NCBI GenBank assembly: GCA_016209495.1
Contig: JACQVX010000187.1
Coordinates: 1-57,269, forward strand
Length of the DNA: 57,269 nt
DNA from: Planctomycetota bacterium
GTDB lineage: Bacteria; Planctomycetota; JACQVX01
Direction: 5' to 3'
Under the pieces are notes generated by a model. The model did not search any database and had not been told where the DNA came from. It saw only the letters and a list, made by a program, of their open reading frames with translations. The first letter of the stretch is position 1. Every line of letters starts with the position of its first letter. The position numbers were made by a program, and so were the translations under genes. Shown here one piece after another: positions 20,774-44,391 of this stretch.

Positions 20774-20776
20774 GCC

Positions 20777-29999: not shown

Positions 30000-30020
30000 T
30001 CACATGTGAGTCACAGGTGA
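30000..30020. promoter_or_regulatory. two adjacent TCACAnGTGA palindromic boxes in the divergent intergenic region (candidate operator)
   Basis: TCACATGTGA (a perfect 10-bp palindrome, 30000-30009), then G, then TCACAGGTGA (30011-30020). They sit in the 162-nt region between the PP2C sensor gene and the Kelch/HYR lipoprotein gene. Confidence 0.3.
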
Positions 30021-30075
30021 AAGCGTGGCGGCCTTTGGGGGGACAGGGGGCGGCCGCGCTGGAAGAGGGGGGCCG

Positions 30076-33000
30076 GTGCGTCTTCCGGGACGCTGGCATG
30101 CCTTCGGGCTCTGCCTCACCGCGCTGCTCGTGTCGAGCTGCGCCGGAGGGGGAGTGTCGGGTCCCCCTGGCACCCTCACCATCACCCTGGTCGATGCCCC
30201 CTCGCTCCTCCCGCACCTGGCCGAGGTGCGCGTGGGTATCGCGCGACTGGAGATCGTCGCGGCCGTGGAGGGAGGGGACCTGGTGCTGCCCCTCCTGGAT
30301 CGGCCCACGGACCCGCTCGTCTACGACCTCCTCGCCCTCCAGGGCGGTGTCACGGCCCAGGTGCTCCAGACGGAGCTGCCCGCCGCGACGTATCGGGAGC
30401 TGAGGCTCCATCTCGCGGGAGACCAGGCGCGCGTCACACTGGTCCAGGGCGACGGGGTGCGGGTCTTCAGCCCCTCCGACGGCAGCCTGATCCTGACGGC
30501 GTCCGCCCTGTCCGCCATCGTGCTCCCCTTCCAGGAGCCGGTGGTCGTGCTGCCCGGGCGGCTGACCGAACTGGTGCTGGACTTCGACGTGAGCGCCTCC
30601 CTCCGGGCCGTCCCCACGGACTACGCGAGCATCGCGGAGGTCCGGGCCCTGGAGCTGGGACCCGAGCTGCGCGTCTCCAACGTCCAGACCACCGCCAGCC
30701 TTCGGGGGACCGTCCTTTCCGACGCCGGGACACCCGGCAGCGCCATCGACGACACCGGGCTGGACGACGTGCACCTCACCGTGGCCACCGAGGGGGCGGA
30801 GGTGGCCCATACCGCTACCGCCCCAGGCGGTGGCTATCTCCTGGCCGGCCTCCCCGCGGGGGATTACCACCTGAGACTGGAGAGGCAGGGGCACCGGACC
30901 ACCTTCGCCTCGGTGTCCCTGGCGGCGGGCGAGTCGCGCCTGGACCTCGTCATGCCCCTCGCCTCGGGGTCCGACCCCGGGACCTGGACCCTGACGGCGT
31001 CGGCCGGCGCCCCTGCCGCCCGGGCCTTCCACACCACCGTGTGGACCGGGGGCCAGGCGCTGAGCTGGGGCGGCCAGACCGCCATGGGCGTCACCGCGAC
31101 GGGGGCCCGCTACGACCCGGCCACCGACGGCTGGACGCCCACCTCGACGGCGGGCGCGCCCGCGGCGCGCAGCTTTCACACGGCGGTCTGGACGGGCTCC
31201 CGCATGGTGGTCTGGGGAGGCCGGGACGCCGCCGGGACGATGGTGGGGAGCGGGGCCCGCTACGACCCGGCGACGGACGCGTGGACACCCACCGCCCTCA
31301 GCGGTGCGACCCTCCCGCGGGCCTTCCACACGGCGGTGTGGACCGGGACCCGGATGGTGGTCTGGGGTGGCATCGATTCGACCGGCCAGCACTCGTCGGC
31401 CGGCGGGGTCTACGACCCGCTCCAGGACACCTGGACCCCTGCGGCGTCGGCCGGCGCCCCGGGCTCGCGGCAGGAGCACACCGCCGTGTGGGCCGCGGGT
31501 CGCATGGTGGTCTGGGGCGGGCGCAACGGCGGCACGCTCCACGGCAGCGGCGGGGTCTACGACCCGGTCGCGGACCTCTGGTCGCCCACGTCCGCGGCGG
31601 GCGCGCCGAGCCCGCGCTTCCTCCACGCGGCGGTGGCCGCCGGCCGCGTCATGGTGGTATGGGGCGGGCGAGAGGCCGGCGGCCAGGCCACCGATTCGGG
31701 GGCCGTCTACGACCCGGACCTGGACACCTGGGTCCCGACCGCCGCCGCGGGCGCCCCTCCGGGCCGCATGCGCCACGCGGCCGTGTGGACCGGCGTCGAG
31801 GTGCTGTTCTGGGGTGGCCAGCGTGGCGTCTACCTCCTGGGGTCGGGCGGCCGCTACGAGCCCGGGACCTCCACCTGGGGAACGATGAACGAGGACGGGG
31901 GGCCGTCGGGTCGAATCCAGCACACGCTCACATGGACTGGCCGGGAGGCCCTGGTCTGGGGTGGACGGACCGGGGCCGGCCTGATGGGAGACGGGGCACG
32001 ATACGACCCGCACGGCACCCTCCCACCCCCGGAGCCTCAGGGACCTCCGCAGAACGGGAGCATCCGCATCGACCTGACGGACCCCTCGCCCATCATCCGG
32101 GACACGACCCCCCCTGCGATCCAGGCCCCGCCGGACCTCCTGGTGGAGTGCGCCGGCCGCGGAGGCCAGGCCGTGTACCTGGGCAGGGCGACGGTCATGG
32201 ATGACGTGGACCCGACGCCCTCCCTGGTGAACGACGCCCCGGCCCTCTTCACCATGGGCGTGACGGTCGTGACCTGGACGACCTGGGATGCCGCCGGCAA
32301 CCTGGCCACCGCCTCCCAGCGGGTCACGCTCCAGGACACGACGCCGCCGGCCCTGGCGGCGCCGCCGGACCTGGTGGTGGAGTGCGCGGGCCCTGCGAGC
32401 CACGCCGTGGCGATCGGCCAGGCCACCGCCACGGACCTCTGCGATCCGGCCCCGGCGGTCTCGAGCGACGCCCCGGCCCTCTTCCCCATGGGCGTGACGG
32501 TCGTCACCTGGACCGCCACGGACGGCGCGGGGAACCGAGCCACCGCCTCCCAGCGGGTCACGCTCCAGGACACGACGCCGCCGGCCCTGGCGGCGCCGCC
32601 GGACCTGGTGGTGGAGTGCGCGGGCCCTGCGAGCCACGCCGTGGCGATCGGCCAGGCCACGGCCACGGACCTCTGCGATCCGGCCCCGGCGGTCTCCAAC
32701 GATGCGCCGGGCTACTTCCCCCACGGGACCACCAGCGTCCGGTGGACGGCCCTCGACGCCAGCGGCAACCTGGCGGTGGCGCTGCAGCGTGTGACCTTGC
32801 TGGATCGCACCGCCCCGGTGGTGAGCGTCGAGTGGGAGCGACTGGGGCTGACCGGCGACCGCAGGGGCGACCGCGCCACCTTCCGCGTCCATGTCACGGC
32901 CCGGGATGCCTGCGACCCGGCTCCGGCCGTGCAGGCGCTCCTGGCCATCCCGGAGATGCCAGAGGGCACGACGGTGCACGTGAGGACAGAGGAGGCAGAC

Positions 33001-33453
33001 GACGGAGCGCTGGAGGAAACCCTGCGTTTCTGGCCCGGACGCGCGAAGATCGACCTGGAGGGCGCGGACGCCGCGGCCGTCCGGGCCCGGCTGGACACGG
33101 TCCTCGCGGCCGGCGGCGTGGCCGTGTCGGACGGCCAGACCATCGAGGTGCGCCTCAATCGCCATCCACACGACTGGAGGCGCTTCCAGTGGCTGGAGGG
33201 TTCGGTCTACCGCGTGGAGGGCATGGACAACGTCCGGCTGATGGTCTCGGCGACGGACGCCTCCGGCAATCGCGCCACGGCCGAGGCGGAGACCGCCCTC
33301 GAGCCCCGTGCCCACGGTGGCGGCGGTGACGACGACGGGGAAGGGGAGGATGACGAGGACGCCCACGACCACGCCCACGACCACGACGACGCCCACGACC
33401 ACGACGACGCCCACGACCACGCCCACGCCCACGCCCACGCCCACGACGACTAG
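30076..33453 (+). CDS. large lipoprotein: DUF4382-like N-domain, carboxypeptidase-regulatory-like domain, Kelch-type beta-propeller repeats, three HYR-like modules, C-terminal His/Asp-rich tail
   Basis: GTG 30076 gives (M)RLPGRWHAFGLCLTALLVSSC, a lipobox. There are seven or so repeats of the type FHTAVWTG.RMVVWGG....G.RYDP..D.W.P (about 30980-32010). Three DTTPPA..APPDL.VECAG... modules follow (about 32100-32810). The tail is DAHDHAHDHDDAHDHDDAHDHAHAHAHAHDD. Confidence 0.8.
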   Translation: MRLPGRWHAFGLCLTALLVSSCAGGGVSGPPGTLTITLVDAPSLLPHLAEVRVGIARLEIVAAVEGGDLVLPLLDRPTDPLVYDLLALQGGVTAQVLQTELPAATYRELRLHLAGDQARVTLVQGDGVRVFSPSDGSLILTASALSAIVLPFQEPVVVLPGRLTELVLDFDVSASLRAVPTDYASIAEVRALELGPELRVSNVQTTASLRGTVLSDAGTPGSAIDDTGLDDVHLTVATEGAEVAHTATAPGGGYLLAGLPAGDYHLRLERQGHRTTFASVSLAAGESRLDLVMPLASGSDPGTWTLTASAGAPAARAFHTTVWTGGQALSWGGQTAMGVTATGARYDPATDGWTPTSTAGAPAARSFHTAVWTGSRMVVWGGRDAAGTMVGSGARYDPATDAWTPTALSGATLPRAFHTAVWTGTRMVVWGGIDSTGQHSSAGGVYDPLQDTWTPAASAGAPGSRQEHTAVWAAGRMVVWGGRNGGTLHGSGGVYDPVADLWSPTSAAGAPSPRFLHAAVAAGRVMVVWGGREAGGQATDSGAVYDPDLDTWVPTAAAGAPPGRMRHAAVWTGVEVLFWGGQRGVYLLGSGGRYEPGTSTWGTMNEDGGPSGRIQHTLTWTGREALVWGGRTGAGLMGDGARYDPHGTLPPPEPQGPPQNGSIRIDLTDPSPIIRDTTPPAIQAPPDLLVECAGRGGQAVYLGRATVMDDVDPTPSLVNDAPALFTMGVTVVTWTTWDAAGNLATASQRVTLQDTTPPALAAPPDLVVECAGPASHAVAIGQATATDLCDPAPAVSSDAPALFPMGVTVVTWTATDGAGNRATASQRVTLQDTTPPALAAPPDLVVECAGPASHAVAIGQATATDLCDPAPAVSNDAPGYFPHGTTSVRWTALDASGNLAVALQRVTLLDRTAPVVSVEWERLGLTGDRRGDRATFRVHVTARDACDPAPAVQALLAIPEMPEGTTVHVRTEEADDGALEETLRFWPGRAKIDLEGADAAAVRARLDTVLAAGGVAVSDGQTIEVRLNRHPHDWRRFQWLEGSVYRVEGMDNVRLMVSATDASGNRATAEAETALEPRAHGGGGDDDGEGEDDEDAHDHAHDHDDAHDHDDAHDHAHAHAHAHDD
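32305..32696 (+). repeat. intragenic direct repeat: 158-nt blocks 32305-32462 and 32539-32696 (234-nt period), 1 mismatch
   Basis: Manual alignment: both copies read GCCACCGCCTCCCAGCGGGTCACGCTCCAGGACACGACGCCGCCGGCCCTGGCGGCGCCGCCGGACCTGGTGGTGGAGTGCGCGGGCCCTGCGAGCCACGCCGTGGCGATCGGCCAGGCCAC[C/G]GCCACGGACCTCTGCGATCCGGCCCCGGCGGTCTC. This is HYR modules 2 and 3. Confidence 0.85.
33319..33450 (+). repeat. coding low-complexity / microsatellite-like tract (GAC/CAC/GCC units) encoding the Asp/His tail
   Basis: GCCCACGACCACGACGAC occurs twice and GCCCAC occurs four times consecutively, among other units, immediately before the TAG stop at 33451. Confidence 0.8.
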
Positions 33454-33464
33454 GGGTGTAGCAG

Positions 33465-35048
33465 TTATCCTTGCACGGCGACCTGGGCCCCCGGGGCGCT
33501 GCGCACCCACCGCTCGACCTCCGCCAGGAATCGCCGCAGGAGGTCCTCCACGCCCGCCTCCGTCGAGAGCCCCTCCCGGTACTCGAAGACGACCTCCGCG
33601 CCCCGGTCGTCGGTGGTGAGGACGACGCCCACTCCAGGCTGTCGCTGGATAGAGCCCCGGATCCACGCGCGTTCCACCGCGAGGCCCTCGGGCCAGGCCA
33701 GCCCTGGAGGGACCCGGATGGTGCTGACCAGGAGCGAGAAGAAGAACGAGCGCGGATCCAGGTCGAAGCGCCGCAGGGCGCGCCGGAAGAGCCAGGGCGG
33801 GAGCACGGCGCTCAGGACCCCCAGGTTCACGGGCGTCTCCACCGCCTCCTCCAGGGTCCTGCCCTCCCGCACGCGATCCCGGATGAGGTCGGGGAGCGCG
33901 GGGGAGCGCACCTCGGCGGGGGTGAACTCGGCGCGTACCACCCCCACGTAATTCCCTGCCGAGGGGCCCAGGCCCAGTAGCGGCCGGAGGTCGGTAGGCA
34001 GGAGGAGCCGGAACGGGCGGTCGTCCAGGGATCGCGCGCGACGCCAGGCATCCGAGGCCACGAGGACCGAGGCGAGGACCAGGTCGTTGCGGCTCGACCC
34101 ACGCCCGTGGGCCGCCGCCCGCAGGGCCTCCCAGGCCTCGGGTCCCAGGCTGGCCTGCCGGTGCCGCGTGAGGCCGGGCCTCGCGTCCTCGCGCTCGAGG
34201 ACCGAGGCGTTCCTCACCCCCACCTTGTCCATGGGCCGGAGGTGGCGGCGGACCATGGCCAGGAGCCAGCGGCCGCCCCGGGGCGCGAGGAGCCGCCGGA
34301 ACCGCGGCTGAGGCGGCGGGCCTCCCGCGGCCGGTCCCGCCACCGCGTAGCCGGCGAGCAGCCGCTCGAGAAGGACCCACTGGCCGGTCCCGTCCGCGGC
34401 GCTGTGGTGCACGCTCATGACGAGCCTCCAGCCCCCGCCGGGCCGTGGGCCCACCCGGAGCCGGAAGGGCGGCCGGCGCGCGAGCCGGAACGGGGCGTCC
34501 AGGGCCTCGGCCTCGGTGCGCTCGTCCTCCGCCCCGTGCCAATCCACCAGGGCCTCGGGCCGGAAGGTGCCCCGACTCGTCACGGCCCGCATCACCCCCA
34601 GGGGGGCCTCCCAGACCAGGCTCCGCGCCACGGGCAGATCCTCCATGAGGCGCGCCACTGCCCGCAGCAGGGCGGGGCGGTCGGGGGGAGAGAGCAGGTC
34701 CAGGAAGAGGTGGCTGTTGACCCGCATCCCCGGGTAGTCGTGGGCGACGAAGAACCGGTCCAGGCCGTTCGGCGGCGCGGCTCCACCACCCGGACAGGCC
34801 CACAGGGCCCAGGCGGCGAGGCCCGCCGCCCAGGGGCCGCCGCCCCAGCCCAGGGGCCAGAGCCCCAGGTGGGCCAGGGCCGTGGCGGCCAGGGCGGGGC
34901 GGGACGGAGGCGACAGCAGGAACAGGGCGCCGAGCGCCGCGGCGGCGGTCGCGGCCCCTGGGGGGAGCGCCTCCGGGACCGCCCAGGGGACCGCGAGGAG
35001 GGAGGCGGCCGCCAGGGCGGCGGCTGTGCGTACGCGGAGCACCCTCAC
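33465..35048 (-). CDS. membrane-anchored condensation-domain (HHxxxDG) acyltransferase, PapA/WS-DGAT-like
   Basis: GTG 35048 overlaps the upstream TGA (GTGA). The N-terminus is hydrophobic (about 3 TM). The active-site-like motif VHHSAADGTG sits in a ~430-aa soluble domain. The upstream part of track ORF 33465..35669 is a shadow. Confidence 0.65.
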   Translation of the reverse strand: MRVLRVRTAAALAAASLLAVPWAVPEALPPGAATAAAALGALFLLSPPSRPALAATALAHLGLWPLGWGGGPWAAGLAAWALWACPGGGAAPPNGLDRFFVAHDYPGMRVNSHLFLDLLSPPDRPALLRAVARLMEDLPVARSLVWEAPLGVMRAVTSRGTFRPEALVDWHGAEDERTEAEALDAPFRLARRPPFRLRVGPRPGGGWRLVMSVHHSAADGTGQWVLLERLLAGYAVAGPAAGGPPPQPRFRRLLAPRGGRWLLAMVRRHLRPMDKVGVRNASVLEREDARPGLTRHRQASLGPEAWEALRAAAHGRGSSRNDLVLASVLVASDAWRRARSLDDRPFRLLLPTDLRPLLGLGPSAGNYVGVVRAEFTPAEVRSPALPDLIRDRVREGRTLEEAVETPVNLGVLSAVLPPWLFRRALRRFDLDPRSFFFSLLVSTIRVPPGLAWPEGLAVERAWIRGSIQRQPGVGVVLTTDDRGAEVVFEYREGLSTEAGVEDLLRRFLAEVERWVRSAPGAQVAVQG

Positions 35049-35986
35049 GGCAGGGCGACCCCGCGCTCCAGCGCGAGGGCCACCACCCAGCCCACCTGGG
35101 CCAGGGCCGCGTGGGCCTCGGCCCAGGGCCGCAGCTTCGCACGCCCCGGGGCTGGCGCGGCAACCAGGCGCAAGGACGCCCAGACAGGCAGGCAGGCCGC
35201 GGTCCCGAGGAGGAGGGGCAGACCCCAACCCAGGCCGGCCCCCCGTGCGACCCATGCCCCCAGGGAGGCGGAGCCCAGGGCGAAGACCGCGCAGAGGAGG
35301 GCGGCGGCGCGCCAGCCCAGGGCCCTGGAGTAGGTCGGGTAGGCGGTCTCCGCCTCCGGGAGCCGCAGCTTGCGGGAGGTCTCCCAGGCGGCCGCCTGGA
35401 GCCAGAAGGCCACCAGCAGGGCCCAGGTGCCCTCCGGCGGCCGCGCCACGTGGAGGTCCCCCAGGGCCACCGAGGCGGCGTAGGCCGCGATGACCAGGGC
35501 GAGGGGGTTGTGCGTGACGAAGGTCGCGAGCAGGCTCCGGGCGATGGCGGGGCAGAAGAACCAGCGGCCCGAGAGCCACACGAGGCCGAGGGCCGTGGCG
35601 AAGGCGGCCCCCGGGAGGGGCCAGCCCAGGCGCAGGTTCAGGAGCAGGGCGGCGAGCGAGGCCACCCACCAGAGGAGCTGGAGGTCCAGGGGGGTCACAC
35701 GCCCCTCCACGAGCGGCCGCCCCCGGAAGGCCGGGTCGCCCGCGGTCGCCAGGCGCAGGTCCGTCTCCAGGTCCTTCAATTCATCCTGAACGCGCAGGAG
35801 CAGGGCCAGGAGGATCACCGTGGCCGATCCGGGGAGCGACCGCCAGCCCAGCAGGACCGGGCCTTCCCATGCCAGGGCCTGGACGGCCAGATAGACCGCC
35901 AGGAAGTGGACCACCCCCATGGGGACCGTGAGCCGGAGGGGGAAGGTCTCGTCCAGGTAGACCGCCAGCCTCCGGATCCAGCTCAC
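35045..35986 (-). CDS. polytopic membrane protein, UbiA-prenyltransferase-like candidate
   Basis: GTG 35986 overlaps the MMPL stop (GTGA). It has about 9 TM helices in 313 aa. An Asp-rich motif QDELKDLETD follows TM2. The assignment rests on topology plus one motif, so it is tentative. Confidence 0.5.
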   Translation of the reverse strand: MSWIRRLAVYLDETFPLRLTVPMGVVHFLAVYLAVQALAWEGPVLLGWRSLPGSATVILLALLLRVQDELKDLETDLRLATAGDPAFRGRPLVEGRVTPLDLQLLWWVASLAALLLNLRLGWPLPGAAFATALGLVWLSGRWFFCPAIARSLLATFVTHNPLALVIAAYAASVALGDLHVARPPEGTWALLVAFWLQAAAWETSRKLRLPEAETAYPTYSRALGWRAAALLCAVFALGSASLGAWVARGAGLGWGLPLLLGTAACLPVWASLRLVAAPAPGRAKLRPWAEAHAALAQVGWVVALALERGVALP

Positions 35987-38286
35987 GGGCTCCCCTCGCG
36001 AGGGCCCACGGGCGGACGCCAGGCCGCCAGGAGCACCGGGGTGAGGAAGACGTCGGCGAAGATGGCGACGAAGAGGGTCAGGCCGGCGACCAGGCCCAGG
36101 AAGGCCGTCCCCTGGAACCGCGAGAGGCAGAGGATCAGGAACCCGAAGGCGACCGAGGTGGAGGTGACGAACATGGGGAGCCCCGTCTCCCGGAGCACGG
36201 CCAGGGAGGCCTCCCGGTGGGCCGCCTCCACCCCTCGCCCACGCAGCTCCAGGTAGCGCCCACGGAATCGCGCCAGGAACTGGATCGTGTCGTCGTCGGC
36301 GATGACCAGGACCATGGAGAAGACCAGCACCGTGGAAGGGCGTAGCGGGATGCCCGCCAGGCCCATGAGGGCCAGGAGCACGGCCACCGGGGCCAGGTTG
36401 GGCACCAGGCCGACGACCGCCAGCCGCGCGCTCCGGAGGACGAGCCCGAAGACCAGGAGGGTCACGAGGACCGCCGCCCCCAGGCTCCGGGCCAGCCCCG
36501 CGGTGAGGAGGGTGGTGACCCGATCCGCGATGGCCAGCACCCCGGTGACGTGGGCCCGGTACCCCGGGGGCGCCTCCGCGCGCACCCAGGCCTCCAGGTC
36601 CGCCACCAGGGCGCGCACCTGGTACGAGGGCATGTCCGGGAGGTGGGCCAGGGCCGCCGCCCGCGTCCGGTCGAAGGAGAGGACGTCCCGGAGCAGCCTC
36701 CCGTCGTCGATGAACTCCAGCTCCTGGGCCGCCGCCTCGCGGCTGGGCGGGAGCCCCCCGTCCGCCTCCGCCTGGACCGGACCCGCCAGGAGACGGTGGG
36801 CCTTCCGCAGGAAGCTGGCGGGGCTCTGGGCATTCCGCACCCCGGGCAGGGTCTCCAGCCGGGCCTCGGCCCGGTCCAGGAAGCGCAGGGCCTCCGGGGC
36901 CAGGGCGTCGGCGCCGCTCGAGCCGGGCTCCAGGTAGATGGCCAGGGGCACGACGCCCCCGTGCACCTCCTCGGCGTAGCGCAGCCTCTGGACCAGCGGG
37001 GAGTCGGGCCAGAGGTCGTCGAAGACATAGTGCAGGGTGCGCACCCGGCTCCCCGCCGCCAGGGAGAGCCCCACCACCGTCGCGGCGACCACGGCCACCC
37101 GGGCGGGGCGCAGGGTCACCTGCCGTTCCACCCAGCCCAGGAAGCGGCTCAGGGCGCCGAGGAGCGCGGGGGGCCTCCCCGCGGGGGCGGGGGCCGCTTC
37201 CGGGCCCAGGGAGAGGGCCAGGGGGAGGACGCTCATGTTGGCGGCCCAGGTGAGCAGCATCCCGGCCGCGGTCACCATGCCGAACTCGAAGATGGCCACG
37301 ATGTTCACCAGGCCCATGGTGACGAACCCCGCGGCGATGGTGAGCTCCGTGAGAAGGCAGGGCACGGCGCTCTCGGCGCAGGCGGCGGCCAGGGCCTCGA
37401 GTCGGGTACGGCCCGCGGCGTGGCGGCGGTGGAAGTCGTTGACCACGTGCACCGTGTCGGAGACGGAGATGATGAGGACCACGATGGGGCTGAAGGAGCT
37501 GAGGACCGCGACGGGCACCCCCACCGCGCCCATGAGACCCAGGGTCCAGACCACGGAGGCCACGATGGTCAGCGTGGCCGCCGCCACGGTGCGGGCGCTG
37601 CGATAGGCCGCCACCAGGATGGCCAGGACCCCCAGCAGGGCCAGCGGGAGGAGCACCGCCGCGTCCTTGTTGACCATCACGATGTAGTCGGCCCGGATGA
37701 CCGGGATGCCCGTGAGGACCAGCCGCCCCCAGTCCCCCCGGCGCTCGTCGAGGAGGGCCGTGGCCGCCCGGTGGAACTCGGCGCGGTCCTCGGGCCGGGA
37801 CCCCTCGCGCACCTGCAGGCCCACCTCCACCGCCGCCACCGGGCGGTCGGGGTGGGCGAGCCGGTGGGCGAAGAGGGGGTCCTCGCGGGCCCTGCGCACA
37901 CGGGCCTCGAGAGCCTCCCCGCTCCGCTCCCCCGGGGGGAAGAGGGGCTCCAGGGAGATGCCCGTCTCGTCCCCCACCACGTCGTCCACCGAGAGCGGGC
38001 CGCGCACGTCCGCCACCCTGGGCAACCGGCGCAGCCCCTCCTCCAGGAGGCGCAGCCTCTCCAGCCCCTCCGGGGTCCAGAGGTCCGCCGCCTCCACCAG
38101 GACCACGGCCCGGGCGTCCTCGTAGGGGAAGGCGGCCCGGTAGCGGTCGCAGACCTCCCGGGCCGGGTCCCGCACGGGGAACATGTGCTCGATGGACGCG
38201 TCGGTGCGAAGACGCGAGACCCCCGCCAGCGACAGGCCACACGCGACGGCCAGGACGGCTGTCGCGAGGGCCCTCCGGCGGAGCAT
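35983..38286 (-). CDS. MMPL / RND-superfamily exporter (COG1033-type, 2 x 6 TM with two periplasmic loops)
   Basis: ATG 38286 (MLRRRALATAVLAVACGLSLAG). There are two homologous halves, each a large loop followed by a TM bundle (…LLPLALLGVLAILVAAYRS…SVSDTVHVVNDF… and …VLVTLLVFGLVLRS…VIADDDTIQFLARF…). Confidence 0.85.
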   Translation of the reverse strand: MLRRRALATAVLAVACGLSLAGVSRLRTDASIEHMFPVRDPAREVCDRYRAAFPYEDARAVVLVEAADLWTPEGLERLRLLEEGLRRLPRVADVRGPLSVDDVVGDETGISLEPLFPPGERSGEALEARVRRAREDPLFAHRLAHPDRPVAAVEVGLQVREGSRPEDRAEFHRAATALLDERRGDWGRLVLTGIPVIRADYIVMVNKDAAVLLPLALLGVLAILVAAYRSARTVAAATLTIVASVVWTLGLMGAVGVPVAVLSSFSPIVVLIISVSDTVHVVNDFHRRHAAGRTRLEALAAACAESAVPCLLTELTIAAGFVTMGLVNIVAIFEFGMVTAAGMLLTWAANMSVLPLALSLGPEAAPAPAGRPPALLGALSRFLGWVERQVTLRPARVAVVAATVVGLSLAAGSRVRTLHYVFDDLWPDSPLVQRLRYAEEVHGGVVPLAIYLEPGSSGADALAPEALRFLDRAEARLETLPGVRNAQSPASFLRKAHRLLAGPVQAEADGGLPPSREAAAQELEFIDDGRLLRDVLSFDRTRAAALAHLPDMPSYQVRALVADLEAWVRAEAPPGYRAHVTGVLAIADRVTTLLTAGLARSLGAAVLVTLLVFGLVLRSARLAVVGLVPNLAPVAVLLALMGLAGIPLRPSTVLVFSMVLVIADDDTIQFLARFRGRYLELRGRGVEAAHREASLAVLRETGLPMFVTSTSVAFGFLILCLSRFQGTAFLGLVAGLTLFVAIFADVFLTPVLLAAWRPPVGPREGSP

Positions 38287-38309
38287 GGCCCCGAAGAGGG
38301 CCTCCAGGC

Positions 38310-39632
38310 TCAAGACCCCGCCCCGCGCGGGGACACCACCACCGGCGTCCCGTGGACCGGCGTCGTGATAATGCCCTTGCGCCGCGCCCGGAGGGTGGGG
38401 GTCCCCGCCAGGCGCAGGTCCACTCGTGCGAGGACCGTGGCCAGGATCACCTGCATCTCGTAGACGGCGAAGGGGGCCCCGACGCAGAGCCGTCCCCCGC
38501 CCCCGAAGGGATAGAACGCCGAGGCCGTGGGCCTGGGCCCCAGGAACCGCTCGGGCCGGAAGCGGAGCGGGTCCGGGTGGACCCGCGGGTCCCGGTGGGT
38601 GAGCCAGGGGCTGGGGCAGACGTGGGTCCCGGCGGGGACCTCCAGGCCGTCCAGGGCCGCCGGGGCCGCCAGCCAGCGCAGGGCGATGGGGATGGGCGGG
38701 TGGAGCCGCAGGGTCTCCTGCACCACCGCCTCCAGGTAGCGCAACGACGCGACTCGCCCCGGGTCGAAGGGCCCCTCCCCCAGCTCCTCCCGGATGCGCC
38801 CCAGGACCCCCGGCGTGCGGAGGACCCGCAGGAAGGCCCAGGCCAGGGCCGCGGTGGTGGTCTCGTGGCCCGCCCCCAGGAGGGTCATGAGCTCGTCCCG
38901 CAGGCCTTCTTCCCCCCAGGTCCCCAGGGCGCCCTCCTCCGCCACCAGGCGGGCAAGGATGTCCTCCCTCCCCTGGGGCGCGCGGTGGGCCTCCCGGATG
39001 GCCTCCACGAGCAGGGTGTGGAAACGCGCGCGCGCTGCGAGGAAGCCGCCCCAGGGGCTCCACGGGCCCAGGTCCCTCCGGAGCGCCCCGACGAAGGGCA
39101 GGACGGCCCCGGCACGCCCGGTCATGCGTTCCACCAGCTCGCGCGCGCGCGCCAGGCGGCCCGGCTCCCGCTCCCCGAAGATGGCCCGGAGGATCACCTC
39201 CAGCGTCACCTCGTGCATGGCCGCCTCCAGGGGAAAGGCCCGGCCGCGCGGCCAGCGCCCCACCTCCTGCAGGCTGAGGTCCCGGATCAGCTCCCCGTAG
39301 GCCCGCATCCGCTCGCCGCGGAAGGGGCCCAGGAGCGGCCTCCGGTGGGCCCTGTGGGCCTCGCCGTCCAGGACGAACAGGGAGTGCTCCCCCAGGAAGG
39401 GCCGGAATCCCTGGTTGGCCTGGCCCGAGAGGAAGACCTCCGGTGGACCCCGGAAGACCGCCTGCACATCCGCCGGGTCCGAGACGATGAGGAAGGTGCG
39501 GCCCCCCACGAAGCGCAGGGTGAAGCGCCGGCCGTGGCGCCGGGCGCATTCGTCCAGGAAGGGGCCCGGCCGGCGGATCCAGGCCAGGGTCTGGAGCAGG
39601 GGCGGGAGCCGGGGGCCGGGGGGCAGTGCCAT
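38310..39632 (-). CDS. cytochrome P450
   Basis: Heme-binding loop FGGGGRLCVGAPFA, ExxR (ETLRLHP), I-helix-like LLGAGHETT, and N-terminal LPPGPRLPP. ATG 39632 is preferred over the upstream extension, which would overlap the divergent gene. Confidence 0.9.
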   Translation of the reverse strand: MALPPGPRLPPLLQTLAWIRRPGPFLDECARRHGRRFTLRFVGGRTFLIVSDPADVQAVFRGPPEVFLSGQANQGFRPFLGEHSLFVLDGEAHRAHRRPLLGPFRGERMRAYGELIRDLSLQEVGRWPRGRAFPLEAAMHEVTLEVILRAIFGEREPGRLARARELVERMTGRAGAVLPFVGALRRDLGPWSPWGGFLAARARFHTLLVEAIREAHRAPQGREDILARLVAEEGALGTWGEEGLRDELMTLLGAGHETTTAALAWAFLRVLRTPGVLGRIREELGEGPFDPGRVASLRYLEAVVQETLRLHPPIPIALRWLAAPAALDGLEVPAGTHVCPSPWLTHRDPRVHPDPLRFRPERFLGPRPTASAFYPFGGGGRLCVGAPFAVYEMQVILATVLARVDLRLAGTPTLRARRKGIITTPVHGTPVVVSPRGAGS

Positions 39633-39671
39633 GGGGAGTGACCGGAGTATACTGCCGCGTCCGGAGGGCAC

Positions 39672-40760
39672 GTGCAAACCTCCCCCATCGGCCCCGCGCG
39701 TCTACCGGAGTTCATCGACCTCGCCCGCCGCCTCTGCCGCGACGACCCGCGCCGGGTCCCTCCGCTCAGGCAGGTCCTGGAGGTCGAGCTGGGCGGCGGC
39801 GGGGCCTTCGCCCGCCGAGGCACGCTCCAGGCCTTCCTCTGCGAGGAGGGAGGCCGCCTCCTGGGCCGGGTGGCGGCCCTGATCCACCCCCGCCTCCTGG
39901 ACGTCGGCGGCGCCCCGGTGGGCCAGGTGGGGTACTTCGAGTGCGCCGACGACGAGGCGGCGGCCGGCTCCCTACTCGGGGCCGCCATGGGGTGGCTCCG
40001 CGCTCGCGGGTGCCGCGCGGCCTGGGGCCCCATGAACGGGGGGGCCCACCGCGCCCACCGCCTCATGACCCGGGGCCACGAGGGGGCACCCTTCCTCTTC
40101 GAGCCGCGCAACCCGCCGTACTACCCGCGGCTCTTCGAGGCCCACGGCTTCCGGCCCCTGCACCGCTGGTCCTCCTTCGAGCTGGACCGGGCCTCGGTGC
40201 GCCCCGTCCTGGGGGTCCTGGCGCGCGGGGCCCGCGGGGCCGAGGCCCGGGGGCTCTGCATCGACGCCCTGGACCCGCGGCGTGGAGGGGAGGTCATCGC
40301 CCGGCTCCACCGCATCCTGGACCGGGTCTGGGCGGGCCACGTGGGATACGTCCCCCTGGAGGCCGACGAGTTCGCCGAGGTCTTCGCCGGGGTCCTGGCC
40401 CTCATGACCGAACGGAACATCGGCGTGGTGGTGGACGCCGAGGGCCGCGACCTGGGCTGCGGCTTCACCTACCCCGACCGCGCCGCCGAGGCGCGGGCCC
40501 TGGACGGGGACGCCGCCGGCTGGGCCGCCGTGGCGGCGGGGCCGAGGCCGCGTCGGGTCGTCTACCATACGGTGGCCTTCCTCCCCGAGGCCCGCCGGAC
40601 CCAGGCCCCGTTCCTCCTCATGGAGCGCGGACTGCGCTACATGGTGGAGGACGGCTACGAGGAGTTCCTGGTGGCCCTGGTGACCGAGGAGCTGGGGCTC
40701 TTCCACCGGGTCGCCCAGCCCACGCGGGACTACGTCCTCTACGAGCGCGAGCTGACTTGA
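39672..40760 (+). CDS. GNAT-fold acyltransferase-like protein (putative)
   Basis: 362-aa ORF with good GC3 bias, divergent from the P450 gene (39-nt spacer). The segment VGYFECADDEAAAGSLLGAAMGWLRARGCRAAWGPMNG resembles the N-terminal half of large GNAT-type proteins. This is a weak assignment. Confidence 0.45.
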   Translation: MQTSPIGPARLPEFIDLARRLCRDDPRRVPPLRQVLEVELGGGGAFARRGTLQAFLCEEGGRLLGRVAALIHPRLLDVGGAPVGQVGYFECADDEAAAGSLLGAAMGWLRARGCRAAWGPMNGGAHRAHRLMTRGHEGAPFLFEPRNPPYYPRLFEAHGFRPLHRWSSFELDRASVRPVLGVLARGARGAEARGLCIDALDPRRGGEVIARLHRILDRVWAGHVGYVPLEADEFAEVFAGVLALMTERNIGVVVDAEGRDLGCGFTYPDRAAEARALDGDAAGWAAVAAGPRPRRVVYHTVAFLPEARRTQAPFLLMERGLRYMVEDGYEEFLVALVTEELGLFHRVAQPTRDYVLYERELT

Positions 40761-40866
40761 GGAGTCGCCGGACAATCACTGCGTGAAACACCGAGGCCGA
40801 TCGAGGCGGCCTAGGAGTCGTGAAAGAATCACTGCGTGAAACACCGAGGCCGAGCGAGGCGGCCTA
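40761..40866. repeat. tandem direct repeat, 2 x 53 nt (46/53 identical), each unit containing a AGGCCG..CGGCCT hairpin
   Basis: Unit A (40761-40813): GGAGTCGCCGGACAATCACTGCGTGAAACACCGAGGCCGATCGAGGCGGCCTA. Unit B (40814-40866): GGAGTCGTGAAAGAATCACTGCGTGAAACACCGAGGCCGAGCGAGGCGGCCTA. The repeat lies between convergent genes. The last 3 nt of unit B are the stop codon of the minus-strand gene. Confidence 0.85.
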
Positions 40867-42741
40867 GTCCGCCGCGCCTAGGATCCCGTGGTATCGCGCG
40901 GTCCAGTAGGCTGCCAGGTATCCCAGGGGCGCCACCTCCACCAGGGGCTGGTTCGCGCCGCCCCGGATCTTGCGGGGGTGTTCCTGCCAGACGAAGCGGT
41001 GGCGCTCGCGGCGGTCCAGGCCGAAGTGCCCCACGGCGTGGTTCCCGCCCCTGCCGAAGCGGTCGATCCAGGGGCTGGGCACCACGTAGGGCAGCGCCGA
41101 GTTGTCGATGACCACCGGGTGCCGGTCGTCGGGGTAGGTCGCCAGGGCCAGGCGCACCGACGCGGCCGCGCCGGGCCAGGGCCTCGCGCCCCAGCCGGCC
41201 TGGATGGCGTCGGCCCAGGCGTTCCCCTCCGAGGCCACGTCGCCCTGCACCCGGTCCAGCATCCGGCCGTAGGCCGAGCGCAGGGCTGGGTCCGTCTCCA
41301 GGTGGCAGGAGGTCGCCAGGGCCAGGAGGCTCAGGTTGAGGCCCACGTAGGAACGCATCTGGTGGGCCAGGTCCACAAGGCCCGCCGGGTGGAGGTGCGC
41401 CCCGTAGGTCGTGACGAGGCCGCGCAGCGTGCGCGCCGGGTCGGGGAGCCCCACCAGGTCCAGGACGTCCGCCAGGAGCCGGAGGTCCGCCAGGACCGCA
41501 TCCCGCTCGGCCTGGCGCGTGGGGTCGTTGAGCCAGGCCACCAGGCGCAGGGCCACGTCCCCCAGCCAGCGGGAGAGGCCCTGGGCCAGGGGCCCGGCCA
41601 GGGCCCGCACGGCCGCGTGCTGCCCCCGGGCCTGGAGCCAGAAGTCCAGGAGCTGCGCCAGGACGTCCGCCAGCCCCGCCAGGGCGGCGCGGACCGCCGG
41701 GAGGTTCCGGCCCCGCACGGCGTCCTCGAAGAGGGTGAGGTTGCGCTCCGCGTGGCCCAGGAGGTCCTTCGACCCCAGGAGGACGTGCCGCCGGTAGGCG
41801 GCGATGGCGGGGTCCGACGTGACGTGCTCCGCCACGGTGAAGAACATGAGGGCGCGCAGGGCCTCGCCGCCCCGCACCGGCGGCCCGCGCAGGGTGAGCA
41901 GGCGCTGGGCCAGGGCGGGCGAGTAGGGGACGGACCGGGCCAGGACGTTCAGGGGGAAGTCGTCCACCGTCGCCCAGGCCTGCGGGGTGATCTCGTCGGC
42001 GAAGAGGTTGTCCGGGTCCAGGTCGAAGTGGTGGAAGGGCGCCCCGGCGAAGGACCCGCGCAGGGCGAGGTCGTTCATCATGAGGTTGTAGGCGATGGCC
42101 CGGGCGTCCTCCCTCAGGGCCGCGCGGAGGGCCGGGTCCGCGATGACCTCCCAGGCCAGGCCGACGCCGTAGAACCAGCCGCTGTACTGGTCGCGGGAGA
42201 GGTCGCCCGTCTCGTAGTTCCATCGGGCGTAGGGCCCCTGGCCCGGCAGGCCGCCGGAGAGGAACCGCGGCTCGCCGAAGCCCCTGGTGATGAGCCCCGG
42301 GACGCCGGTGATGGCGTGCAGGTGGTGCAGGGCCCAGAGTGCGCGCTCCATGGCGGCGAGGGCGTCCGGGTCCCCGGTGGCGCGCCACCGCAGGGCCTCT
42401 ACCCCGGCCCAGGTCCCGGTCCAGATGGCCGCGTCCCCGTAGCCGTCGTAGCCCGCCACGCCGCCCGTGGCGTCCAGGCGAAGGTCCAGGACGAGGCCGT
42501 CGGGGGCATGATGGGCGGCCATGGCCTCCTCGAACCGGCGGGCCCGCTCGGCCAGGGGTCCCCGGGGCGGGACCGTGCCCGCGCCCGTGGAGGCCGCCGT
42601 CGTGGCCGCGGTGGCGGGGGCCTTGGCCGGGGCCGCGCCCGCCCCGCGGCGGCGGTCGAGCCCGGCGAGACGCTCGGCGGGACCGCACGCCGCGAGGAGG
42701 AAGAGGAGGGATGCCGAGGCATGGAGTCCACGCGAGGCCAT
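40864..42741 (-). CDS. hypothetical lipoprotein (625 aa)
   Basis: ATG 42741 gives MASRGLHASASLLFLLAACG (lipobox), then an Ala/Thr-rich linker and a large, mostly helical-looking domain. I recognise no family. The upstream 164 codons of the track ORF are a shadow. Confidence 0.65.
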   Translation of the reverse strand: MASRGLHASASLLFLLAACGPAERLAGLDRRRGAGAAPAKAPATAATTAASTGAGTVPPRGPLAERARRFEEAMAAHHAPDGLVLDLRLDATGGVAGYDGYGDAAIWTGTWAGVEALRWRATGDPDALAAMERALWALHHLHAITGVPGLITRGFGEPRFLSGGLPGQGPYARWNYETGDLSRDQYSGWFYGVGLAWEVIADPALRAALREDARAIAYNLMMNDLALRGSFAGAPFHHFDLDPDNLFADEITPQAWATVDDFPLNVLARSVPYSPALAQRLLTLRGPPVRGGEALRALMFFTVAEHVTSDPAIAAYRRHVLLGSKDLLGHAERNLTLFEDAVRGRNLPAVRAALAGLADVLAQLLDFWLQARGQHAAVRALAGPLAQGLSRWLGDVALRLVAWLNDPTRQAERDAVLADLRLLADVLDLVGLPDPARTLRGLVTTYGAHLHPAGLVDLAHQMRSYVGLNLSLLALATSCHLETDPALRSAYGRMLDRVQGDVASEGNAWADAIQAGWGARPWPGAAASVRLALATYPDDRHPVVIDNSALPYVVPSPWIDRFGRGGNHAVGHFGLDRRERHRFVWQEHPRKIRGGANQPLVEVAPLGYLAAYWTARYHGILGAAD

Positions 42742-42849
42742 GGAGGCCCTCCTTGGACCCGACTCCCTCGGGGGGGGGAATCCTACGAGCCCGGGGGGGG
42801 AGAGTCCAGTGGACGGGATCGGTGGCGACATCGTTTCGCCCATGCGAAC

Positions 42850-43281
42850 ATGCAGCCCGCCATGGCGCTCGTGACCACTGTGCTCTTCGCCTGCGTCCAC
42901 AACGCGGGACGTTCCCAGATGGCCGCCGCGTTCTTCAACGCCCTCGCCGACCCCGCGCGGGCCCGGGCCATCTCCGCGGGCACCGAGCCGGGGCAGCGCG
43001 TCCATCCGGAGGTCGTCGAGGTGATGCGCGAGGTCGGGATCGACCTCGAGCGCGCGCGGACCCGGAGGCTCACCTCCGACCTGGCATCGCGGGTGCAACT
43101 CCTCATCACAATGGGGTGTGGGGAGGCGTGCCCGACCGTGAGCGGCCTCCCGCGCGAGGACTGGTCGCTCCCCGATCCGAAGGGTCTGCCGCTGCCACGA
43201 GTCCGTGCGATCCGCGATGGGATCCGCGAGCACGTGCTCCGGCTGATCGACGCGAGGGACTGGGGTTGTGGGTTCCCTTGA
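42850..43281 (+). CDS. arsC: arsenate reductase, LMW-PTP (thioredoxin-coupled) type
   Basis: VLFACVHNAGRSQMA is the CX5R(S) P-loop of the LMW phosphatase/ArsC family. GCGEACP is typical of the ArsC subgroup. Only the last ~143 codons of track ORF 40888..43281 are real. ATG 42862 is an alternative start. Confidence 0.8.
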   Translation: MQPAMALVTTVLFACVHNAGRSQMAAAFFNALADPARARAISAGTEPGQRVHPEVVEVMREVGIDLERARTRRLTSDLASRVQLLITMGCGEACPTVSGLPREDWSLPDPKGLPLPRVRAIRDGIREHVLRLIDARDWGCGFP

Positions 43282-43307
43282 CGCCGAGTCGCCGCTAGGA
43301 TCCGGCC

Positions 43308-43529
43308 ATGCGTGGGTTCCGCCTCCTGGCCACGGCCCTGCTCCTGGCGAGCGTCACCGGTTGCACGTCCAGCGGCGAGCGGGAGCGCGTGGGACAGCCC
43401 TCGCGGCTGGAGGGACGCTACACCTGCCGCGTCCACCCGGAGGTGCGCCAGTCCGCCCCGGGAGATTGCCCCGTGTGCGGGGAGCCCCTGGAGCGGGACG
43501 GCGCCGGGTACGGTCGTCACGGGCGCTGA
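43308..43529 (+). CDS. small lipoprotein with heavy-metal-binding (YxCPMHP...CPxCG-like) domain
   Basis: Lipobox LLLASVTGC. YTCRVHPEVRQSAPGDCPVCGEPL resembles the Y-x-C-P-M-H-P-x5-P-G-x-C-P-x-C-G-M-x-L metal-binding motif seen on CusB/CopA-type proteins. Confidence 0.6.
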   Translation: MRGFRLLATALLLASVTGCTSSGERERVGQPSRLEGRYTCRVHPEVRQSAPGDCPVCGEPLERDGAGYGRHGR

Positions 43530-43545
43530 GGAAGGCGTCCCGGAC

Positions 43546-43722
43546 GTGGACCCGGGGCTCCGGGTCCGGGCGAAGCTCCGCTGGTGGCGATCCCTGAGAC
43601 CCCGGCGCGAGGTCCGGCGGGGCCTCGTCCTGGCGCTCTGGGCCTCGGCCACCGCGCTCCTGGCCCTGGAGCTGTCGGTCGCCGCGCTGCGGCTGACCGG
43701 TCTTTCCGGAGGCGCGGGGTGA
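43546..43722 (+). CDS. possible small membrane protein (58 aa)
   Basis: GTG 43546 opens a GC3-biased frame with one TM (GLVLALWASATALLALELSVAAL). Its TGA overlaps the GTG of the next gene (GTGA). There is no homology evidence. Confidence 0.3.
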   Translation: MDPGLRVRAKLRWWRSLRPRREVRRGLVLALWASATALLALELSVAALRLTGLSGGAG

Positions 43723-44378
43723 ACGGACCGAGGGATGACCAGGGCGCCCTGGCGGTCCGCCGTGTCCTCGACGAGCCGGGGGGCGCGCGCGTCCGCGGCC
43801 GGATCGGCGAATGGGCCTTCGCGGCCCGCAGCCTGTTGCCCATACCCTTCGTCGCCCTGGGCCTGGCCCTGGCGGACCCCACTCCGGCCGTATTCCTGGC
43901 CGGGTCCGGCCTCGCCGCCCTGGGGGCCGCCCTGCGCCTGGCGGCCCTGCGCCACTCGGGCCCCAAGACCCGCTCCACGGGCAAGGTGCGGGCGGATGGC
44001 CTGGCCGTGGGTGGGCCCTACGCCCACCTGCGCAATCCCCTCTACGCCGGGAACCTGCTCTGCGTCCTCGGGCTCCTCGTGGCCACGGGCTCCGCGTGGT
44101 TGGCCGCCCTGGGCCCCCCGGCCTTCTTCCTCGTCTACGGACCCATCGTGGCCACGGAGGAGCGATACCTGGGCGAGCGGTTCGGCGAGCCGTACCGCGA
44201 GTTCATGGCCCACGTCCCCCGCTGGCTCCCGCGCCGCACCCCGTGGGTCCGGCGCGCAGCCTCCCACGCCCTCCTGGAGGTCCTCCCCGGAGAGGCCAGC
44301 TCCCTCCTCGCCCTGGAGCTGATCCTCGGCCTCCTGGGGGCGCAGGCCCTGGGCTGGGTCCCGGTCCTCGGCGGTTGA
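43719..44378 (+). CDS. isoprenylcysteine carboxyl methyltransferase (ICMT/PEMT) family membrane methyltransferase
   Basis: GLAVGGPYAHLRNPLYAGNLL...TEERYLGERFGEPYREF is the family's SAM-binding C-terminal signature. The start is set at GTG 43719. Confidence 0.75.
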   Translation: MNGPRDDQGALAVRRVLDEPGGARVRGRIGEWAFAARSLLPIPFVALGLALADPTPAVFLAGSGLAALGAALRLAALRHSGPKTRSTGKVRADGLAVGGPYAHLRNPLYAGNLLCVLGLLVATGSAWLAALGPPAFFLVYGPIVATEERYLGERFGEPYREFMAHVPRWLPRRTPWVRRAASHALLEVLPGEASSLLALELILGLLGAQALGWVPVLGG

Positions 44379-44391
44379 GGCCCGAATCGGA

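Follow-up and report, generated by a model that had tools for sequence, protein, structure and literature searches.

Plants and cyanobacteria salvage phytol with the phytol kinase VTE5 and the phytyl-phosphate kinase VTE6, which feed the UbiA-family homogentisate phytyltransferase VTE2. A stand-alone HHxxxDG acyltransferase is encoded together with an MMPL-domain RND transporter in the PapA5/MmpL7 system for PDIM and in the PapA1-2/MmpL8 systems for sulfolipid. The C50-carotenoid operon of Corynebacterium glutamicum, crtE-cg0722-crtBIYeYfEb, combines a UbiA-family enzyme (the lycopene elongase CrtEb) with an MMPL-family transporter gene (PMC5401885), and the archaeal glycerophospholipid pathway comprises DGGGP synthase, CarS, archaetidylserine synthase and archaetidylserine decarboxylase (reviewed in PMC9385802). 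Here, we analyze a 57,269-nt stretch of Planctomycetota DNA (the window: assembly GCA_016209495.1, contig JACQVX010000187.1, positions 1 to 57,269) which encodes a cytochrome P450, an RND transporter, a UbiA-like protein and an acyltransferase in one minus-strand operon. These genes belong to known superfamilies in an undescribed combination and probably constitute a lipid biosynthesis and export cluster. We give about even chances to the reading that this translationally coupled operon serves the synthesis, tailoring and export of a membrane lipid which is hydrophobic and most likely derived from isoprenoids, as a local variant of a conserved UbiA-centred pathway.

Because the G+C content of the window is 75%, mechanical lists of open reading frames (ORFs) are full of shadow ORFs. 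Real coding frames were picked by way of a frame plot of codon-position GC (GC3). Between 39632 and 33465, this signal marked out four coding stretches in a row on the minus strand, with the frame switching exactly at the boundaries that an earlier note on this DNA, made from the letters alone, had drawn. The operon and its divergent neighbour consist of the following elements.

38310-39632, minus strand: cytochrome P450, 440 aa, first gene of the operon (GC3 frame, PF00067)
35983-38286, minus strand: MMPL-domain RND transporter of the HAE3 type, 767 aa (GC3 frame, PF03176/TIGR00921)
35045-35986, minus strand: predicted divergent UbiA-superfamily intramembrane enzyme, 313 aa (GC3 frame, AlphaFold (AF2)/Foldseek fold, NF010118)
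33465-35048, minus strand: putatively membrane-anchored, stand-alone condensation-superfamily acyltransferase (PapA5/WS-DGAT-like), 527 aa (HHSAADG, profile matches)
39633-39671, no strand: divergent intergenic region between the P450 and GNAT genes, 39 nt, likely a shared promoter region
39672-40760, plus strand: predicted tandem-GNAT N-acyltransferase, 362 aa, divergent from the operon (GC3 frame, AF2/Foldseek)

A spacer of 23 nt, in which GGAGG occurs, separates the P450 stop codon TGA from the transporter ATG at 38286. GTGA start/stop overlaps join the transporter gene to the UbiA-like gene (35986-35983) and the UbiA-like gene to the acyltransferase gene (35048-35045). The divergent starts, ATG for the P450 (39632) and GTG for the GNAT protein (39672), lie 39 nt apart. 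The sole sigma-70-like match in 33000-41200 falls into this gap (GTGCCA-16-TATACT, plus strand, 39626-39653; a consensus match only), and positions 39633-39671 are likely a promoter region shared by the two genes. With the frame plot and the reading of the junctions, we could confirm the gene coordinates, the 23-nt gap, both overlaps and the divergent gap given in the earlier note. The four minus-strand genes are a real, non-random and co-conserved operon with translational coupling.

The UbiA-like gene is the hallmark of the conserved set. Its product matches the NCBIfam model NF010118 'prenyltransferase' with an E value of 4.6e-26, and a precomputed match to Pfam PF01040 exists for 10 of the 16 listed homologues. 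Since the family profile found no sequence match among all Protein Data Bank (PDB) chains even at E<=10, structure prediction was needed instead. The AF2 model, built on 17 homologues (pLDDT 93.8, pTM 0.91), contains about nine transmembrane (TM) helices. A Foldseek search with this model placed the DGGGP synthases 7bpu and 6m31 and ApUbiA 4od4 at the top (TM 0.65-0.75), and returned a probability of 1.00 for 7bpu, 6m31, 4od4, 4tq4, 8j8j and UBIAD1 8djk. On the strength of the model, the protein is a true member of the UbiA superfamily and represents a divergent new subfamily. The 9-TM, Asp-motif UbiA-like assignment of the earlier note is borne out by the NF010118 match, the model and the fold. 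In an alignment of 17 sequences, the first Asp motif is invariant (D68-E-L-K-D72-x3-D76) and is followed by R90-P-x3-G95, in which the proline is nearly invariant; this canonical first motif carries an inserted 'AGDP' loop. The DGGGP synthase model PRK12884 gave weak matches in 3 of the 17 members (best E 6.6e-5). The 17 homologues found by word index all come from metagenome-assembled genomes or metagenomes, and an exhaustive profile search extended the family to 252 clusters at E<=1e-30 and 745 at E<=1e-10. Distant members (P0239, P0250 and, in L061, 10001-11692) are fusions in which an unannotated membrane domain of ~250 aa precedes the UbiA-like domain at the N-terminus. This domain has no Pfam, NCBIfam or PDB match and no free-standing homologue in the loci; its motif DTAAAxxGxRxG...KSxEGS may point to CTP-dependent prenol kinases, a likeness that no profile confirmed.

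To establish the partners of this gene, we compared eight encoding contigs and 50 GTDB loci by tblastn with the window proteins and partner proteins. Partners within 10 kb of the UbiA-like gene were counted in 52 non-redundant loci:

Tandem GNAT: 37/52 loci, adjacent in 19; the most faithful neighbour of the UbiA-like gene
Rph/PEP-synthase-like (PPDK-like) phosphotransferase: 33/52 loci, often as two paralogues
Phosphatidylserine (PS) decarboxylase (PSD): 14/52 loci
Orthologous P450: 13/52 loci, adjacent in 9
HAE3 MMPL/RND exporter: 12/52 loci
CarS-like protein: 8/52 loci
Acyltransferase: 6/52 loci, adjacent in 5
Small CDP-alcohol transferase (archaetidylserine-synthase-like): 5/52 loci
DUF3419 protein (BtaA-like): 5/52 loci
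527-aa methyltransferase in the position of the acyltransferase: 4/52 loci

The synteny check proposed in the earlier note thus came out in favour of co-conservation, as orthologues of all five window genes recur beside the UbiA-like gene. Carriers belong to Planctomycetota, Myxococcota, Acidobacteriota, Gemmatimonadota, Gamma- and Alphaproteobacteria (Pseudomonadota), Spirochaetota, Bdellovibrionota and Rokubacteria, so that the gene set is present in at least eight bacterial phyla and the window operon is one local version of it. More distant versions in Bacteroidota and Actinomycetota keep the pairing of UbiA-like, PPDK-like and MMPL proteins. Orthologues of the P450 (45-57% identity) lie immediately upstream of the UbiA-like gene, adjacent or overlapping, in nine loci, and acyltransferase orthologues immediately downstream in L004/L005, L024, L030 and L055; transporter orthologues near the UbiA-like gene include those in L008 (50% identity), L001, L053 and L061. 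The order P450-UbiA-acyltransferase is found in L024 and L030, and UbiA-acyltransferase-FA_hydroxylase with a P450 nearby in L004 and L055. In L063, P450 and acyltransferase genes occur alone, the P450 immediately upstream and 53% identical to that of the window. In GCA_023954375.1, GCA_019636275.1 and GCA_016197205.1 the acyltransferase gene does not adjoin the UbiA-like gene, which is located elsewhere in the genome. P450, UbiA-like protein and acyltransferase behave as a module; within the wider set, tailoring by the P450 and by the acyltransferase is optional. Since it occurs in so few of the loci, the acyltransferase is accessory and not the organising enzyme. The complete order P450-MMPL-UbiA-acyltransferase with a divergent GNAT gene has so far been found only in this window.

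Other loci reveal which head-group enzymes accompany the set. In the clean low-GC locus L028, the CDP-alcohol transferase scores best as archaetidylserine synthase (NF038087, 2.1e-27), the CarS-like protein as CDP-2,3-bis-(O-geranylgeranyl)-sn-glycerol synthase (NF003114, 1.4e-21) and the decarboxylase as PSD (6e-99). A LolA-like protein of the TP_0789 family accompanies the set in L008 and L028. The L061 operon has the order MMPL - HMG-CoA reductase - PPDK-like - DUF3419 - fusion - GNAT - PSD, and HMG-CoA reductase occurs also in L057; we take its presence in these two loci as an isoprenoid hint. Shadow ORFs at 70-75% GC spoiled most of an unsupervised clustering of stop-to-stop ORFs across the loci, which still revealed two further partners: a recurrent FAAL-like ligase (6 loci), followed by a ~960-aa class-III aminotransferase with a C-terminal Shikimate_DH/HemA-like NAD domain. 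The aminotransferase/dehydrogenase fusion is present in at least nine loci and absent from the window. The features concerned are:

L010, 15441-19984: FAAL-like ligase and fusion pair; also in L027, L022, L030, L035, L050, L032, L013 and L056

This pairing suggests a conversion of fatty acid through aldehyde to amine, which may feed the tandem GNAT. Of the 50 GTDB matches, a single one comes from a cultured genome, that of Anaeromyxobacter oryzae Red232 (L053, NZ_AP025591.1, 326063-346605). Here, an intact 327-aa UbiA-like ORF (9788-10771) lies between two PPDK-like genes, with GNAT, MMPL, PSD and DUF3419 genes upstream.

The family assignments of the P450 and the transporter agree with those of the earlier note. 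The P450 matches PF00067 (E 2.5e-58, 198.4 bits) with intact motifs, namely AGHETT in the I-helix, ExxR, and the haem Cys-ligand sequence FGGGGRLCVG, which fits FxxGxRxCxG. It is of the class E, 'eukaryote-like' type. Its closest PDB sequences are CYP51 6mi0 (5e-32), the carotene hydroxylase CYP97A3 6j94, CYP170A1 3dbg and CYP120 2ve3, and in all cases the substrates of these solved relatives are sterols, carotenoids or terpenoids. The transporter contains two MMPL stretches (PF03176, E 3.9e-22, 79.1 bits against a gathering cut-off of 20.5), a match to the sterol-sensing domain (E 3.4e-8), and ~12 hydrophobic segments with two soluble loops by hydropathy. Its best NCBIfam model is HAE3 (TIGR00921, 187.4 bits, E 3.4e-55), ahead of the actII MMPL model (109.5 bits, E 1.5e-31) and the HpnN models TIGR03480 (99.5 bits, cut-off 751.85; E 1.3e-28) and NF052374 (71.5, cut-off 1100); the HAE3, actII/MmpL and HpnN scores are all under the curated cut-offs. 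The earlier note had left the choice between an HpnN-like and an MmpL-like protein to be checked. Judged by these model scores, the transporter is of the HAE3 type, nearer to the HpnN side than to mycobacterial MmpL, yet no HpnN equivalog. It shares superfamily and domain plan with the HpnN/HAE3 lipid exporters, whose expected role would be to carry a hydrophobic isoprenoid lipid to the outer membrane, and is our proposed lipid exporter. Unlike for HpnN, we found no hopanoid genes in the scanned parts of the window.

The acyltransferase carries the motif HHSAADG at residues 214-220, with H214, H215, S216, D219 and G220 invariant in 22 homologues. Single-sequence matches are weak (PapA_C 9.5e-5, Condensation 2.3e-4, WS/DGAT 1.3e-7) and all below their cut-offs (bits/cut-off: PF00668 20.5/30.6, PF16911 22.3/30, TIGR02946 30.9/309.95, NF006787 26.7/396). 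With the family profile, we could detect PDB relatives, namely the PvdL C domain (8.3e-10), PapA5 1q9j (5.7e-9) and bacitracin synthase (6.1e-8). Three overlapping hydrophobic windows in residues 6-46 are consistent with an N-terminal membrane anchor of one or two membrane segments. These observations uphold the membrane-anchored, HHxxxDG condensation-type enzyme of the earlier note, and by sequence comparison the protein is assigned to a new condensation-superfamily subfamily which is equivalent to neither PapA5 nor WS/DGAT. The divergent gene was likewise recognised correctly as GNAT-like: its product matches Pfam Acetyltransf_1 (E 4.4e-5, 24.2 bits against a cut-off of 20.7). The AF2 model (pLDDT 93.6) predicts two GNAT folds in one chain, that is, a tandem GNAT. 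Its top Foldseek matches are the tandem GNATs 5kf1 (glucosamine N-acetyltransferase; E 6.5e-13), 2wpw and 7q3a, together with MshD 1ozp, Eis and the MprF C-domain; the clavulanate tandem GNAT belongs to these best matches. At least 117 clusters of homologues exist, none of them named.

Two more genes of the conserved set are located ~30 kb from the operon. The earlier note, correct about the operon itself, had missed this pair.

3828-4454, plus strand: CarS-like (CDP-archaeol-synthase family) membrane protein (PF01864)
4451-7144, plus strand: Rph/PEP-synthase-like (PPDK-like) phosphotransferase (PPDK_N ATP-grasp and PEP-utilizers swivel domain)

The CarS-like gene starts with GTG at 3828, with GGAGG upstream, and its stop overlaps the start of the PPDK-like gene in a GTGA at 4451-4454, which indicates translational coupling. 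Its product matches PF01864 (E 1.9e-11) and, by tblastn, the CarS-like protein of L008 (39% identity). The PPDK-like protein matches PPDK_N (E 1.7e-58) and PEP-utilizers (1.6e-23), keeps the catalytic-His motif LSHTAII and is 48% identical to the L008 orthologue, which adjoins P450-UbiA. Genes for the two proteins adjoin or overlap one another not only in the window but also in L059, L033 and L024. Among NCBIfam models, NF004881 (2.7e-192), the RIF phosphotransferase RPH (2e-97) and PigC (4.6e-86) match the phosphotransferase. It has the same ATP-grasp and swivel-His architecture as RPH and PigC, and its orthologues carry the Rph_4th substrate domain; however, it stays below all equivalog cut-offs, and its conserved partners are lipid enzymes, not antibiotic or pigment genes. 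Because of these partners, we infer that its substrate is a lipid hydroxyl or phosphate. The gene following the pair (7161-9122) encodes an acetyl-CoA-synthetase-like protein with an ACAS_N domain and is the only AMP-binding gene among the scanned window genes.

How might these proteins work together? The DxxxDxxxD/Mg2+ site of the UbiA-like protein would ionise a lipid diphosphate and thereby form the lipid core, either by transfer of the group to an acceptor hydroxyl, as in DGGGP synthase, its closest structural relative, or by cyclisation. The CarS-like/PPDK-like pair may supply the donor or a phosphorylated attachment point for the head group. One option is that the resulting lipid alcohol would be converted to the lipid phosphate and on to the CDP-lipid; an alcohol activated in this way would allow attachment of serine, decarboxylation and N-acylation by the GNAT. 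The other is that the pair would produce a lipid diphosphate, making the diphosphate donor from the free alcohol. Coupling of a kinase to the UbiA-like enzyme is favoured, because the UbiA-like gene is bordered by one or two PPDK paralogues and because the ~250-aa membrane domain is fused to the UbiA-like domain in distant members. The arrangement resembles phytol salvage, in which kinase-type enzymes are likewise tied to a UbiA-family transferase, here with one or two PPDK-like proteins and/or the CarS-like protein beside the UbiA-like one. In contrast to that system, the kinases are of the PEP-synthase/Rph type and no homologues of VTE5/VTE6, and there is no aromatic acceptor pathway. The sterol/carotenoid-type P450 could then hydroxylate the hydrocarbon part, the membrane-anchored HHxxxDG acyltransferase could esterify the new hydroxyl with a fatty acyl group, and the tandem GNAT could N-acylate an amine in the head group. 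In other loci, this amine would be installed by archaetidylserine-synthase-like or BtaA-like enzymes together with PSD. From their distribution, DUF3419 on the one hand and CarS/CDP-alcohol transferase on the other look like alternative routes for attaching an amino-acid head group to a lipid hydroxyl, followed by PSD and GNAT. Finally, the HAE3 RND pump would move the finished lipid from the inner membrane towards the outer membrane. An undescribed exported lipid, which the earlier note had suggested as the product, remains the likely outcome on sequence grounds.

Several points weigh against this proposal. Gene structure, folds and families, catalytic motifs and co-conservation are observed, and every enzymatic step is inferred from them. 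The UbiA-like protein stays below the threshold of PF01040 (E 0.018, 14.8 bits, cut-off 34.2), and its family lacks the second Asp motif, DxxxD in the TM6-7 loop. In place of that motif, the 17 sequences share the invariant A-W-E202-x-x-R205-K206-x-R208...E213-T-x-Y216 (AWExxRKxR...ETxYxTYS). The operon contains no redox partner for the P450, and the window's 57 kb contain no PSD, CDP-alcohol transferase or DUF3419 gene. Neither a polyprenyl synthase nor GGGP synthase or G1P dehydrogenase is found in the gene tables of L001-L008 and L061. Because of the 30-kb distance, the link of the CarS-like/PPDK-like pair to the operon in the window rests on synteny elsewhere. Moreover, the window sequence was found only in groundwater metagenome DNA and in no RNA run.

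A more specific version of the proposal is that the full set constitutes a bacterial isoprenoid (ether-type) phospholipid route without GGGP synthase or G1P dehydrogenase, with the window encoding a P450-hydroxylated, O-acylated version; we consider this decidedly unlikely. PEP-synthase-type phosphotransferases would activate the lipid alcohol or its phosphate, and archaeal-type enzymes would build the head group before N-acylation and export to the outer membrane. The likeness to the archaeal pathway lies in the DGGGP synthases 7bpu/6m31 as best structural matches of the UbiA-like protein, and in the CarS-family protein (present in the window itself), the CDP-alcohol transferase scoring as archaetidylserine synthase and the PS/archaetidylserine decarboxylase of the conserved set. 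On the other hand, the UbiA-like protein is only 12-14% identical to DGGGP synthase, matches PRK12884 weakly and in few members and has its second Asp motif replaced. GGGP synthase and G1P dehydrogenase are missing from the gene tables of the examined loci, and the Rph-like phosphotransferase, tandem GNAT and RND exporter are seemingly obligate partners without archaeal counterpart. The C50-carotenoid operon likewise unites a UbiA-family enzyme and an MMPL-family transporter in one isoprenoid-lipid operon. It differs in that the scanned parts of the window contain no phytoene synthase or desaturase, and in that the UbiA-like protein belongs to a different subfamily.

Other explanations are conceivable. 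Since many long spurious ORFs overlap the region at 75% GC, the operon could be a fortuitous juxtaposition of unrelated genes combined with spurious ORF calls. However, GC3 periodicity selects exactly the four operon frames and the GNAT frame, homologues with 45-57% identity and conserved catalytic motifs exist for each of the five proteins, and the orthologues recur together in other phyla. The synteny and frame analyses rule this explanation out, and we regard it as virtually impossible. A terpenoid natural-product cluster is a more serious contender, even if rather unlikely. In such a cluster, a membrane-bound UbiA-type terpene cyclase would act on FPP or GGPP, the P450 would oxidise the product, the acyltransferase (elsewhere the methyltransferase) would cap the hydroxyl and the RND pump would secrete a secondary metabolite instead of an envelope lipid. 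The nine loci in which the P450 gene overlaps or abuts the UbiA-like gene fit this idea, as do the terpene, sterol and carotenoid substrates of the nearest characterised P450s and the P450-UbiA-methyltransferase trio in L003, L007, L036 and L046, which has no kinase or GNAT gene nearby. UbiA-type enzymes implicated in cyclisation are also mentioned in a preprint (bioRxiv 10.64898/2026.05.21.724671). Yet most loci pair the UbiA-like protein with phospholipid head-group enzymes, a kinase-like enzyme and GNAT, not with a P450; phylogeny gives no clean P450-linked clade; and the genomes with the trio carry MMPL-PPDK-CarS elsewhere. The invariant RPxxxG after the first Asp motif also resembles transferases, the only enzymes it was compared with; we take it to correspond to the RPLxxG element of E. 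coli UbiA and DGGGP synthase.

A PapA/MmpL-type pathway, the logic that the earlier note had seen in the locus, would use the condensation-type acyltransferase to attach fatty acyl or (poly)ketide chains to a core for export by a coupled MmpL, as for PDIM and sulfolipid. The pairing of a PapA5-matching acyltransferase that keeps HHxxxDG with an MMPL-domain transporter in the same operon holds, and FAAL-like genes occur in six related loci. However, no polyketide synthase (PKS), FAAL, FadD or acyl carrier protein gene is found in or beside the operon among the window genes scanned, the transporter is HAE3-like and not MmpL/HAE2-like, and FAAL in the related loci is paired with the aminotransferase/dehydrogenase fusion, not with PKS. 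In addition, the operon acyltransferase has N-terminal hydrophobic segments and is, in 6 of 52 loci, an optional accessory of a UbiA-centred set. What remains is a loose analogy, and we judge this pathway quite improbable. Ubiquinone biosynthesis combines a prenyltransferase with tailoring by a hydroxylase and a methyltransferase. By the same logic, the UbiA-like protein could prenylate an aromatic acceptor, with the P450 and methyl- or acyltransferases decorating the ring of a quinone-like cofactor. Some sources annotate UbiA-like homologues as 4-hydroxybenzoate polyprenyltransferase, and the trio in L003/L007/L036 resembles quinone tailoring. Against this explanation, the loci contain no aromatic-precursor genes, the best structural matches are not confined to aromatic prenyltransferases but extend to the lipid synthase DGGGPS, and quinone synthesis has no use for the recurrent PSD, CarS-like protein, CDP-alcohol transferase, DUF3419 and RND exporter. 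From its MethyTransf_Reg/WHD_PKMT Pfam domains, the 527-aa methyltransferase was judged not to be UbiE/UbiG-like. A quinone-like pathway is therefore highly improbable. We also compared the ebo (EboC) operon for thallusin or prenylated cyclitols and rejected it as a model: the eboA-F partners were not encountered, and no EboC model is among the NCBIfam matches of 17 members. TatD-like, sugar-phosphate cyclase, xylose-isomerase-like and alkaline phosphatase genes, which are ebo partners, are absent from the examined loci and the scanned window genes.

The operon is flanked on one side by a convergent Kelch/HYR surface-protein gene and on the other by an unconserved lipoprotein-like ORF. The former (30010-33453, plus strand) converges on the acyltransferase gene and encodes a secreted-looking protein of 1147 aa with DUF4382, CarboxypepD_reg, a Kelch beta-propeller and HYR. 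Beyond the GNAT gene, an 829-codon ORF (40864-43353) and a PEMT/ICMT-like gene (43530-44378) were rejected as cluster members because they have no counterpart in any related locus. Within the former, between the GNAT and PEMT-like genes, 40864-42700 (minus strand) encodes a protein of ~600 aa whose signal resembles that of lipoproteins (…LLFLLAACG…) and which matches nothing in Pfam or NCBIfam. The latter, on the plus strand 2.8 kb past the GNAT gene, encodes a PEMT/ICMT-family membrane methyltransferase (PF04191, 9.3e-10) with a weak match to the lipid A phosphate methyltransferase LmtA; its product could modify a lipid head group, with no counterpart in 60 related loci.

Just beyond the lipid operon lies a signalling pair (24138-29868, minus strand), consisting of a large Cache-HAMP-GAF-SpoIIE (PP2C) phosphatase (26599-29868) and an adjoining PAS hybrid histidine kinase with two receiver domains (24138-26129). 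Two multihaem c-type cytochrome genes (18127-19749 and 22190-24061, within 18127-24061, plus strand) flank a cNMP-binding/4Fe-4S protein (20774-22189), and the second cytochrome has an N-terminal FHA domain, an unusual fusion. At 435-2416 (plus strand), a DAC-domain c-di-AMP synthase (CdaA-like) gene precedes a YbbR-domain (CdaR-like) gene as the usual cdaA-cdaR pair. What looks like a small peptide-ligase pair occupies 44323-47155 (plus strand): first a RimK-like ATP-grasp gene whose product bears an RLAN N-domain, then a gene of the GCS2 glutamate-cysteine-ligase family.

In full-text literature, we found no description of the gene set centred on this UbiA-like protein. The Lipocone paper (PMC12419801) and the thallusin/ebo preprint (bioRxiv 10.64898/2026.05.21.724671) describe other UbiA-containing neighbourhoods, in the latter case the ebo operon. 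If our reading is right, the set encodes a widespread lipid pathway without a described product. In soils, groundwater and sediments, which the carrier phyla dominate, no producers or genes are known yet for many 'orphan' membrane lipids and biomarkers. Bacteria that pair a DGGGPS-like core enzyme with head-group enzymes of archaeal type are relevant to the debate on the 'lipid divide'; if the route independent of GGGP synthase were real, at least eight phyla common in groundwater, soil and sediment would possess a pathway, so far unrecognised, to hybrid or 'archaeal-style' lipids. The large Rph/PEP-synthase-like family would in turn gain a physiological role beyond antibiotic inactivation. 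The cultured carrier Anaeromyxobacter oryzae Red232 makes this question directly testable.

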